This document shows positions 1 through 64,000 of a DNA stretch of 64,000 nucleotides, one piece after another. A program made the translations under genes and the position numbers. The notes below the pieces were generated by a model, which was given only the letters and a program-made list of their open reading frames with translations, did no database searches and had not been told where the DNA came from. The DNA is taken from assembly GCA_964016885.1 (NCBI GenBank), contig OZ024745.1, forward strand, positions 35,836,001-35,900,000, written 5' to 3'. Numbering within the stretch: position 1 is the first letter of the stretch; every line of letters starts with the position of its first letter. Source of the stretch: Eledone cirrhosa. Lineage: Eukaryota.

Positions 1-1065
1 GTTTAATACAAAAATAACGAAGAAAAATCTCAGGTAACAATCTAAAAACATCTCATAACTTTCTTGCTAATGAATATTTATAACTACAAATTCGGCACAA
101 TTCATTTTTTTCCATAATGCAGTTTTATATTATTGTAAGAAAGTGTTAAACAAAAAGTATTAGTAATTGATTTATTTTTAAATACTTTTATTTATGCTCA
201 AAATTATTGAAAATTGTAAACTTGTATTTGAAATAGACTAAACTTAAGCCCAAATATGTTTCGTCATGCTTTGCAATTTCGTGTTCCTAGTGTGAATGTT
301 TCTTGCTGAGATATATAACATCATAAATTTTATACAACAGGCAAAGTCAATTCTACTTGCGAAAAGATTGAGAATCTTATAGATTTTGCAAGCAAACTAT
401 TTTTGTTGAAATCTTATTTATCGATATTGCAACCTTGACTTGCCAGTAGTGAGTATTAATAGCAGTACAACAGCGTGATTCAGAATGAATGTGTAATTCA
501 TTATGTTTATATTTATTATGCTTATATGTAATGATATTAATAGGTACTCATTTTTAACTTGTATCCGTGCTTTTTGTACGTGTGTGGACTCAGTGCGAGT
601 GGACATCCTAACGTTGACGGATATCAAATAAACTGGATAATGGTGAATAGCTAGTCATCGACCTTATGAGAGACTGCACTTGATTAGATGTTATTTGCAA
701 ATAGAATATGATATCACAGTGACCAAAATCTACAGATATATATGGTTTGACTTGTCAATTGAAACAAATCAGACTGGAATGTACTCCTGGACAAATCAGA
801 CTCGAATGTATTCCTCTCAACTAGGAAGACGTATTGTATATATAGGAGAATAAATATTTGACTTACACTTAGTTTTTAAATAGGCTACCGATAAGTTTAT
901 AGGACTACTTATTATTGAAATAAAGATTCATGAGGAAAGTTCAATTTTCCTTTTTTCTATGTGAATAAAGTAATTCGGATAACTCTTAAAAGGGAGAAGT
1001 ACTTGAAATTTATTGTATTTTCTGCATATAATTTTGTACGTTTGCACTCTCTTCATGAAAATAAT

Positions 1066-1245
1066 TGTTTCTACTTTTGGCACAAGGCCAGCAATTAACC
1101 AGTACATTACTGGTACTTTATTATATCGACCCCTTAAGGATGAAAGGCAAAGTTAACCTCGACGGGATTTGAACTCAAACCATAAAGGGACGTAACTATG
1201 CTAGAAAGCATGGCGTCCAACCCTCTACTGATACTGCCAATTCAC
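1066..1245 (-). mobile_element. tRNA-derived SINE, family 1 (octopus-type)
   Basis: Shares tttctac..ttggcacaaggccagcaatt / tactggtact / atcgacccc..aaggatgaaagg..aagttaac / tgaactca with copies at 22549-22735 and 58270-58458; the minus strand has A-box-like tggcagtatcag and B-box-like gagttcaaatcc. Confidence 0.8.
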
Positions 1246-2706
1246 AATGAAATTGGATTATAATCTGAAACCACTAGATCTTTTACCGTCGATAATCCTG
1301 TCATATCGACACAATGACATCAACGTTGGCCATCTTGCTTCTAGTTTTCTATATTTCATAACTCTTCACCTCCCTGTGAACATTTTAGCTTTTTGTTTAT
1401 TATTTACTTTCCAGCGCGTATATTCTACAAAGGAGATATCAATAACCCAGCCTTGTTCGAACTTAATTTCGATTATTCAAATTGCTCACATTGTGTCTAA
1501 TTGCCTCGAGATAATGACAGCACCATTGAATTAAAATCGAAATAATATTGATTCTCAATATCTGGAATAAAGGTATTGTAGAAAAACACTATATAAAAAG
1601 TGAAGTATATATAGATATGTTCATACATTATTTCTCACGTGGCCTATAGATTTTGTATCGCTGAGTTTAATGATTCACCGACAACACCACAAAATCTGAT
1701 GTGTTTCTTCTATGGATACATGTGCTTTCGCTACTTCATTTTAATGAATTGAAGAATAAACCACGAGATAGTGGATGCTAATTGAATGATACTAGAGTTA
1801 AACAATTTGAACTATTGACGCTCAGTTTGATGGGTTATAAATCGTCGAAAAAATTCATGCTGCGTCAAACCTCCTCTACTAAAAACCCAACATTGTGTCA
1901 AAAGAAATTAAAATTCATAGACTATGTATTGGAAACTAAATATACATATGAGCATGTAGGGCATTCTAGAAAAAGCCTAAAGAATATGAGTTATAGATGA
2001 GAATCTGAGGGTGTATATTTTGTTTTGATATAAAAGTACATTGTAGATATCAGCCTAAAGATATGAAATTCTATTCATGTAGATTTTCAGGAGTTAAATA
2101 AAATATTTTCCAATAAATTTTATGTTCCACTGATTTTATTTAATTCTTAAATAAGGTTAATATTAGTTAAATAAAATACATTTCAATATAAATTGATAAT
2201 TATGTTTAAATAAATACATGGAAATTGAATATTTTTGACTGAAATCGTATAAACATTATTGACAACTGCACATGAAATTTATTAGAATGAGGTCGGCAAA
2301 TACTCCTAGTAAACCTCTTTATCCGGATATAATTTCGTAAAGAAACCAGATTCAAGAATGTATGTTTAGATTCTAAGAATTAAAAAGAATAATCTCGAAT
2401 ACTAAAATAAATTCCTCGTATTTTAAAGAATAAAACGAATATGATTAATTGCAAATTAAATTTTTCCAGAAAATTTGACTTTAAATATGAATTCTGCAGT
2501 AAGTTGTTTACTTATGGAACAACTTTTCTTTGATATCTATAATCTACCAGCTTCCATAGTATCTGAAGATTGAAACAGAATCCTTAGAATTTAATATGTA
2601 TGCTTGTATGAAGAAATATATACTTACACATGTATATATATAAATGCATACATATATATGTACACGCACACGCACATACATACACACACACAAACACGCA
2701 CACACG

Positions 2707-2755
<49 letters not shown>

Positions 2756-3395
2756 ATATATATGTATATATATTATAAAGAAAAGGAAAAATCATTGATG
2801 CATCTGGAATTAGTTTATTTCGTGTTACAAATATTCCACCGGCATGTGGCTCGAGACATGGTCATTGTATGGATCTGGCTGATTCTACTTCTGCGGGTTC
2901 TTTCAGACACGGGTATTTCTTCCGGAGCAAATTTTATCACTGGGGTGTTATCATCAAAAAACACCCTCAAAAAACCCTATTTCCACTCTTGTCATGCCAT
3001 TGGCTGTTTTTACTCCACGTCATTACAAGTTCTGGTCAGTATCTGCTGCCACACGGTTCATCAACCATTTTCCGTCCGACACATTTCGATGGAGTCATGC
3101 TGGGTTCAGTACTTCACACGTCTGCTCACACTTCAGAGTAAGCACCCGCACATACTAAAATACAAACATAAACGCACACACATGCCGACACATACCTATT
3201 TATGCATACACACACATACGCATACATGCGCAGACACACACACACCCACATACATACATCGAAGTATATATACACACACACTCTATCCCTCACTTCCACG
3301 GACCCAGTCACACACACTTGTTGATACATATCGCCACAAGCCTTCTGACGGCTGCTTACTTCGCGCCCTGTATCAGTTGGGATAAGCATATCCTA

Positions 3396-4779
<1,384 letters not shown>

Positions 4780-63007: not shown

Positions 63008-63594
63008 AAATATACATGCTTATTATAATAGATATTTTGAATGTATATCTATCTATTTAGATAACCGAAAGATTACAAACTCTTCTCTCACTTTATATCA
63101 ACACACCCGAAGTAACTCCTACTTCGTCTCCCCTCTCCCCAATCATATTGGAGGAGTGAATAAAATAGAAAGGGTGAGAAAATATTTGCGTATGTGTGTC
63201 TGTGTTGTATTTTGGTAGTCGCCTGGGCTGTCTGGTGTTCGGTGCCAAACAATACTTCCTCGCATGTAAGGTGACGTCAATGTACATCAGATAGGCTAGT
63301 TGTTCAACTATGACGCGCAAACATCACACACATTTCATCATAGGCTCGTTTCATGGAGGCTAATCTGTAGCTAAAGATCTAAGACGTAAACTCCTAGAAA
63401 TATCAGCCAAGTTCTCCGAGATCATAATGTAATGTGATTAACTAGGGAAGAACAAATTGGTAAATGTCATCTTATATCTACACAATATATATATATATTA
63501 TAAATATAAGCTATCGTCGTATTTTGACTAAAAAAAATTATTTAGCCTGATAGTGGGGTTAAGAACCCTCGGAGAAATGGAAAAAAGATGAGTA

Positions 63595-63667
63595 TTGACG
63601 TAGATGGGAGTCGAACCCAGATCTTTGGTTATCCAGACCACTGTACTACCATTACACCAAAACATCA
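63595..63667 (-). pseudogene. tRNA-like sequence (SINE-type head)
   Basis: TGATGTT..tggtgtaatgg (A box)..TGGT-CTGGATA-ACCA..TGGG-TTCGACT-CCCA..TACGTCA; imperfect cloverleaf. Confidence 0.7.
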
Positions 63668-63869
63668 CCCGTCTTCTTCCATTCAAATTAGAAGCTATAA
63701 TCTTAGCAACTGTAATGTCAAGTAAGAATATTTTCGAAACAGCGAGCGAGTTTGAAATTATAAATATAAGCTATCGCCTTATTTTGACTAAAGAAATTAA
63801 AGAAATTATTCTTACTTGACATTACAGTTGCTAAGATTATAGCTTCTAATTTGAATGGAAGAAAACAAG

Positions 63870-63942
63870 TGATAGGTTGGTGCAATGGTAGCACAGTAGT
63901 CTGGATAACCAAAGATGTGAGTTCGACTCCCATGTACGTCAA
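63870..63942 (+). pseudogene. tRNA-like sequence (inverted copy)
   Basis: GTGCaatggtaGCAC D-arm and gagttcgactc B box. Confidence 0.7.
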
Positions 63943-64000
63943 TACTCATCCGTTTCCATTTCTCCGAGGGGCCTTAACCCCACTATCAGGCTAAATAATT

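Follow-up and report, generated by a model that had tools for sequence, protein, structure and literature searches.

Penelope-like elements (PLEs) insert as partial tandems with an inverted, 5′-truncated arm and a tail at one end, and Naiad and Hydra use (TA)n targets (both in the text consulted of PMC8557442). According to the consulted part of PMC11167929, the PLE protein cuts both strands and extends them, using two RNA sites between which the tail is defined; the origin of the tail and of the inverted arm is called unresolved (PMC8557442, PMC11167929). Animal non-LTR retrozymes, which are tandem non-coding units of 150-400 nt thought to be moved by PLEs, have a type I hammerhead in every unit as their defining feature (consulted text of PMC7229834; 10.64898/2026.07.22.740005). 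Sm-alpha and Sj-alpha of Schistosoma are tRNA-derived, tandem, non-coding and high-copy, with a tRNA that is not simply a 5′ head; Sm-alpha carries a hammerhead that cuts its multimers, and two-armed, tailed insertions are not described for it in the text consulted (PMC6765202, PMC2770079). The TRIMp3 elements Helenus, Ajax and Cassandra are LTR elements with a PBS, a PPT and 5-bp target duplications (consulted part of PMC10886601).

The 267-nt family analyzed here has in common with PLEs and their passengers (Naiad, Hydra, Chlamys/MRC1) the partial tandems, the inverted 5′-truncated arm, the one-end tail, the (TA)n target and the lack of a visible duplication (PMC8557442, PMC11167929, PMC3846280, in the parts consulted). 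Unlike the PLEs known from those texts, it has neither an ORF nor a hammerhead and carries an internal tRNA mimic on a stalk. It resembles the retrozymes and the Schistosoma repeats in the general features listed above but lacks the hammerhead of retrozymes and Sm-alpha, and it differs from TRIMp3 in its PLE geometry: in place of an LTR-internal-LTR layout there are head-to-head arms and no internal part. The family behaves as a non-autonomous PLE and lacks the features that define a SINE, a retrozyme, Sm-alpha, TRIMp3 or a MITE. In a literature search, with the Repbase and Dfam libraries outside its range, we found no hammerhead-less, tRNA-bearing PLE passenger described, nor does the consulted text of PMC13282606 describe such an element. 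The family implies that a PLE passenger does not need a hammerhead, and with it PLEs would join SINEs and TRIMp3 among the carriers of small-RNA-gene sequence.

A two-armed insertion between TA runs

The window, the 64,000-nt stretch of DNA that was analyzed (G000:C5:35836001-35900000; host genome size 3.0 Gb), truncates the element, as the preliminary description had recognized. Inspection of the downstream sequence placed the whole element, of 592 bp, at 63498 to 64089 (1501-2092 of locus L001), its end lying 89 bases beyond the window at another TA run. It consists of two head-to-head arms of the non-coding unit with a TA run on each side; the left arm comprises about 1.2 units and reads leftwards, and the right arm comprises about 1.1 units and reads rightwards. 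The features are as follows.

63486-63497, no strand: (TA)6 target microsatellite, left flank (sequence; TA-end counts in the family)
63498-63810, minus: left arm of 1.2 units in tandem, its 3′ end facing out at the fixed B site (unit 267), 5′-truncated at about unit 215 in the second pass
63498-63757, minus: a complete unit of 260 bp (family length 267)
63739-63780, minus: predicted hairpin with a bulge (helices of 5 bp and 3 bp around a 3x1 loop); the B end lies in its AU-rich loop, and a tandem junction is needed to complete it
63667-63684, minus: leader strand of the predicted 18-22-bp stalk beneath the tRNA
63596-63666, minus: tRNA-like domain, unit 92-162, with short variable loop and anticodon GGA (ARAGORN, Rfam)
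63649-63659, minus: A box (sequence)
63607-63617, minus: B box / T-loop, A58 at 63611 (sequence)
about 63598-63612, minus: family break-off hot spot just 3′ of the T-loop, unit 146-160 (arm-stop counts)
63575-63594, minus: trailer strand of the predicted stalk
63581-63586, minus: T run 3′ of the tRNA, T6 here against T5 in the majority of copies; resembles a Pol III terminator and belongs to the stalk
63802-63810, no strand: head-to-head junction; the arm alignments share up to 9 nt (microhomology)
63802-64000, plus, on to 64089: right arm, 5′-truncated at about unit 23, passing the B site to a 43-nt tail and then a TA run
63871-63941, plus: second tRNA-like domain, with the T run broken in this copy (Rfam)

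A tRNA-like cassette within a terminally redundant unit, and an inverted arm next to TA, had been noted previously, and both are borne out. The fold at 63596-63666 was called by ARAGORN at 63595-63667 and scored 35.2 bits against Rfam RF00005, the second copy at 63871-63941 scored 29.6 bits, a direct repeat (63497/63757) recurs after 260 nt, and 63802 marks the start of the inverted arm, with (TA)6 at the left flank of the element. The unit length, previously put at about 261 bp, is 260 in this first unit because of a deletion, and 267 nt in the family. The A and B boxes were assigned by comparison with their consensus. No open reading frame of 100 aa was found across the element, so that the RT and GIY-YIG reading frame of an autonomous PLE is absent.

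Searches of the host genome with a 503-bp query gave 164 matches from the best 40 of 3565 first-look candidates, which is far above chance but is not a copy number; nor are the 638-3565 first-look candidates per query. In DNA fetched for other reasons there were no copies in 314 kb and two in 181 kb, and a 22-nt motif of the family had no match among the metagenome contigs searched. In total, about 200 insertions were surveyed, all of them best-scoring matches and not random copies, and they fall into three subfamilies with units of 267 nt (a), 256 nt (b) and 276 nt (c, at 64-67% identity). The first set, 76 insertions at 75 non-redundant loci from three DNA searches, favors long, tRNA-bearing copies. 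Unit positions refer to the tRNA strand and to the numbering of the 267-nt unit.

Insertion geometry and the search for a coding partner

The PLE-like geometry proposed from the window alone recurs throughout the family, with its tandem units, inverted 5′-truncated arm, one-sided tail and TA targets. In the first set, 60 of the 76 insertions are head-to-head, 16 are single-armed and none is tail-to-tail, and in the roughly 200 insertions of all three subfamilies the arms lie 3′-out on the tRNA strand. Outer ends in the first set fall at two sites, the B site (unit 267) and a tail site 34-44 nt farther on; the tail measures 35-43 nt in a and b and about 50-60 nt in c. One B end was paired with one tail end in 39/44 two-armed copies of the first set (22 expected; p 6e-8), a count that omits 16 two-armed copies with an unclassified end. 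Further samples gave 17/18 (6 of these 18 overlapping the first set), 15/15, 5/6, 2/3 and 18/19, for an overall 91/99 classifiable two-armed copies once the six shared loci are removed. Furthermore, a TA run adjoins 104/120 outer ends in the first set, as against 492/3938 control 30-mers (12.5%); both flanks of the element are TA runs, a target duplication is not visible, and the inner joins in the first set mostly overlap by 1-5 nt. Fixed ends outside and ragged ones inside point to the tRNA strand as the template. The unit is passed more than once in 12/80 arms, which would fit a multimeric or circular RNA, and arms that consist of the tail alone, ending at the B site, are not in excess (3/49, 1/47, 2/42). 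A passenger of 267 nt with many young copies offers statistics that are beyond the reach of long elements.

Based on these features we consider it likely that this tRNA-mimic family is copied in trans by a PLE RT/GIY-YIG protein, probably by priming on both cut DNA strands, with start sites separated by about 40 nt on a single RNA longer than the unit, which agrees with the pair of start sites and the two-strand priming of PMC11167929. The geometry and polarity of the insertions, their fixed 3′ ends (two) and variable 5′ ends, and the microhomology at their joins are observed in the copies themselves and form the first step of such a route. In the second, the template would be the tRNA strand of a multimeric, circular or terminally redundant RNA and not a Pol III monomer. 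If so, the family would provide a minimal substrate for the study of PLEs in vitro. A GCT(A) that begins a helix strand lies about 10 nt beyond both start sites in all three subfamilies (window 63739-63747 and 63693-63707, minus strand) and may guide the start of copying. The hairpin at the B end is not, by itself, unusually stable (z -1.6). At one locus (L122, 1132-3912), 10.2 units of 272 bp, 3.1% apart, follow one another in the same orientation; this array is a possible source of multimeric RNA.

The absence of a canonical hammerhead, also part of the preliminary description, was upheld by several searches: the CUGANGA core was not found within one mismatch on the tRNA strand, no hammerhead core occurs in the template strand of a, b or c, and an Rfam scan gave no match to a ribozyme family. 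A CTGATAG...AGAAA half-core was rejected as a hammerhead; it lies on the strand opposite to the template, has no stem III and is lost in c.

The host genome is rich in coding PLEs. Among 80 PLE loci (30+20 with GIY-YIG and 30 Hydra-like) there was no autonomous partner with matching ends and no Naiad was recognized, and because none of the 80 shares the ends of the unit, we infer PLE mobilization from the geometry. Comparison of three short motifs with the supplement of PMC8557442 gave only three chance-like matches. Two candidate partners were discarded. A 39-nt match (E 0.027) beside a Poseidon-like PLE in L266 proved to be a c copy; it is nested in the TA run at the end of that PLE, whose hammerhead core is canonical. 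The other, an 11-nt resemblance of the c tail to a 3′ region of Neptune-like type, was set aside, since the TA run there is internal to the Neptune-like element. The surveyed loci also include PLEs with open frames of 636-1096 codons (L247-L250), which we take from their motifs to belong to the Neptune-like clade; another Neptune-like family with an internal (AT)n run ahead of its true end; and an abundant Hydra-like family (L121, L141-L170) whose two ends are separated by about 170 nt and whose hammerhead-like motif has the core CTGATAG.

The tRNA-like domain and the template RNA

Twenty events separate subfamily a from subfamily b, with none in the tRNA and T run (unit 92-176; P 0.0005 if events were uniform), and single copies decay evenly, at 2.9% inside the tRNA versus 2.4% outside. 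The identity of a and b in the tRNA despite this even decay suggests either selection on source elements only or one homogenizing recombination. Relative to a and b, 9 of 71 tRNA positions are changed in c; four of these changes lie in stems and keep or improve the pairs, and five, the loss of A58 among them, sit in the anticodon and T loops. The anticodon is GGA in a and b and GGC in c. A Ser anticodon without a long variable arm is atypical. A functional tRNA gene would have a fixed identity and be under selection in each copy; neither is found, and the domain is not a working tRNA. No parent tRNA was identified by comparison with 16 host tRNA-like hits (best identity 36-48/73), and phage hits were weak. 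Ten of the 16 best host RF00005 hits (L173, L175-L183) belong to one TA-flanked repeat family of about 1.7 kb that contains inner inverted repeats (about 180 nt) as well as an internal tRNA-like gene of 53-72 bits and variable anticodon, and that looks like a non-autonomous DNA transposon with a captured tRNA; L172 and L174 (G000:C1:243.65-243.68 Mb) hold tandem tRNA-Thr(AGT) genes, 5-7 per 3 kb.

The sequences on either side of the domain, a leader and a T-rich trailer, are predicted to pair as a stalk of 18-22 bp (-19.0, -23.0 and -24.5 kcal/mol). Among 2000 shuffles, one attained this energy for a and none for b, the stalk is weaker on the opposite strand, and in c a matched 2-nt insertion is present on both of its strands. 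When the three consensuses were folded, cloverleaf and stalk were both recovered, and four further predicted hairpins are conserved with indels in their loops, the B end lying within one such loop. A single-sequence fold of unit a gave 0.9 for the T-arm, 0.12 for the acceptor, 0.03 for the D stem and 0.08 for the anticodon stem, and RNAalifold applied to 12 decayed copies favored a long rod over the cloverleaf. Pairing of leader with trailer can hinder RNase P and RNase Z. In a fourth step, the tRNA domain would act mainly as a folded RNA mimic whose stalk would block both enzymes; promoter activity of the domain is possible and is not required by the data.

The preliminary description had speculated that tRNA processing generates the ends. 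This was not supported, as no ends accumulate at +1 or at the RNase Z site: the fixed ends lie about 105 and 140-148 nt 3′ of the tRNA, and the RNase Z site is a stop in 1/80 arms. The view that these copies are not ordinary SINEs was substantiated, since the copies do not begin with a tRNA head and inner ends near tRNA +1 number 1/118 in the first set and 3/26 in a length-unbiased sample. Most arms that reach the tRNA start (23/26) continue past +1; together with the 12/80 multi-pass arms and the single RNase Z stop, this indicates a template longer than a +1 monomer and uncut at the tRNA ends. A tRNA-less junction of leader and trailer, sought with one strict exact pattern, had 0 matches.

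A Pol III-driven tandem RNA had also been proposed, and an alternative built on it is in our view possible but doubtful. The tRNA would here be chiefly an internal Pol III promoter, read-through of the first T5 into the next unit and a stop at the second would yield a terminally redundant RNA, and the enzyme would make longer arms by jumping between the two tRNA copies, all of which is compatible with copying by a PLE. In its favor, a and b both have perfect A and B boxes, with no change between the two subfamilies, and the T5 is the only run of T4 or more on the template strand (12% of shuffles have at most one). Yeast Pol III often reads through primary terminators (10.1101/2021.08.27.457903, consulted in part), and Cassandra and Sm-alpha offer precedents (PMC10886601, PMC6765202, likewise). 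However, a T5 or longer stands 9 nt 3′ of the tRNA in 207/224 segments, ends do not pile up at +1, subfamily c has spread with a B box damaged by the loss of A58, and the stalk needs a leader that would be absent at the first tRNA of a transcript starting at +1.

Break-off at the T-loop and the origin of the two arms

Break-off points were counted in a second set, retrieved with the 3′ 90 nt alone as query (28 loci of a, 26 of b, 17 held-out and 61 of c) and on that account unbiased for arm breaks below unit 177; complex loci (4 of a, 3 of b, 1 + 1 held-out and 7 of c) were skipped beforehand. In a and b together, arms stop below 177 on their first pass in 62 cases, and 33 of these stops lie at unit 146-160, just 3′ of the T-loop, which is 6.4 times the rate elsewhere. 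This bin was chosen after inspection; among held-out copies the counts for it are 10/11 in a and 2/6 in b. For all arms reaching 160, the stop is in 146-160 in 45/85 (a and b) versus 8/56 in c (Fisher p 3e-6), and the rate ratio of this bin in c is 0.8. The 3′ strand of the T-stem, the 3′ strand of the acceptor and three 4-nt palindromes are identical in c, whereas its T-loop lacks A58; therefore microhomology alone is insufficient for the peak, and the intact T-loop would account for it. Subfamily c is also older (93% to its consensus), has two T-loop base differences and may have been copied by another enzyme; its age or its enzyme could likewise underlie the contrast.

Outside tRNA, T-loop mimics that carry GUUCRA are substrates of TRMT6/61A methylation, and the positions at which m1A cuts cDNA short are imprecise (consulted text of 10.1101/202747); the GUUCRA motif is present in a and b and absent from c. 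The stop peak lies 4-5 nt short of the position expected for a block by m1A58, and arms that read through show no significant excess of substitutions at A58 (3/71 vs 19/923, p 0.2), so that a folded elbow or cleavage in the T-loop could also be responsible. We propose that, as a fifth step, the intact T-loop would halt the enzyme, probably via m1A58 or the folded elbow, and that the cDNA end would be trimmed back to the nearest microhomology. The break-off thus likely records a copying enzyme stalling on folded, possibly methylated RNA, and if it reflects m1A58, genomic copies preserve a record of RNA modification.

The two arms of an insertion are related to one another. Mixing of a and b within an insertion was seen in 0/84 classified cases (57 aa, 27 bb; 12 unclear), rare variants are common to both arms in 24/380 as compared with 0.9% in control pairs and to the tandem units of one arm in 28/229, and the stops of paired arms are correlated (both in the hot spot in 9, one in 7, none in 17; p 0.002). 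These data suggest that one source RNA or locus would stand behind both arms, as the third step of the route; gene conversion could also cause the variants common to both.

Such variants would equally be expected if the inverted arm arose by self-priming (fold-back) of one nucleic acid strand with an enzyme of the same class, a model stated in the consulted part of PMC3846280, and symmetrical junctions at 4-nt palindromes are present in 7/32 B/tail insertions. We nevertheless judge fold-back to be unlikely. Of the two arms, the B arm is the farther-reaching one in 18 insertions and the tail arm in 7. The same palindromes occur in c, which has no hot spot, and in 9/32 insertions each arm carries sequence that is missing from its partner, which means that neither arm is a copy of the other unless the center was later deleted. 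A foldback or MITE-like element acting at the DNA level, or a common tRNA SINE that was rearranged once inserted, would share the long inverted arms and TA flanks but is highly improbable, given fixed ends that are unequal in 39/44 copies in place of equal terminal inverted ends, a variable center, tandem passes, a polarity that follows the tRNA strand, conservation of RNA-level structure on one strand and ends that do not start at the tRNA.

Copying in trans by a PLE protein can be extended to a more specific picture, which we offer tentatively and regard as doubtful in its entirety. The family would represent a class of Penelope passengers with a stalk-protected tRNA mimic in place of the hammerhead, posing as an uncleavable pre-tRNA; m1A58 would be written as the break-off point of thousands of insertions, and the arms would reflect two enzymes priming both DNA strands from one RNA.

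Individual loci provided further observations. At L221 (1501-2112), 42 nt (unit 162-203) are repeated eight times within an arm, and at L236 (856-1590), 58 nt (unit 95-151) are repeated six times; both local repeats are bounded near the ends of tRNA helices and perhaps represent repeated template slips. At L123, the insertions at 753-1285 and 3166-3698 are nearly identical, lie 2.4 kb from each other and share their right flank, which reflects a local duplication. Finally, besides the nested c insertion, L266 (3392-3560 and 1-151) contains an unselected b-type copy with a symmetrical junction at unit 157, inside the hot spot.
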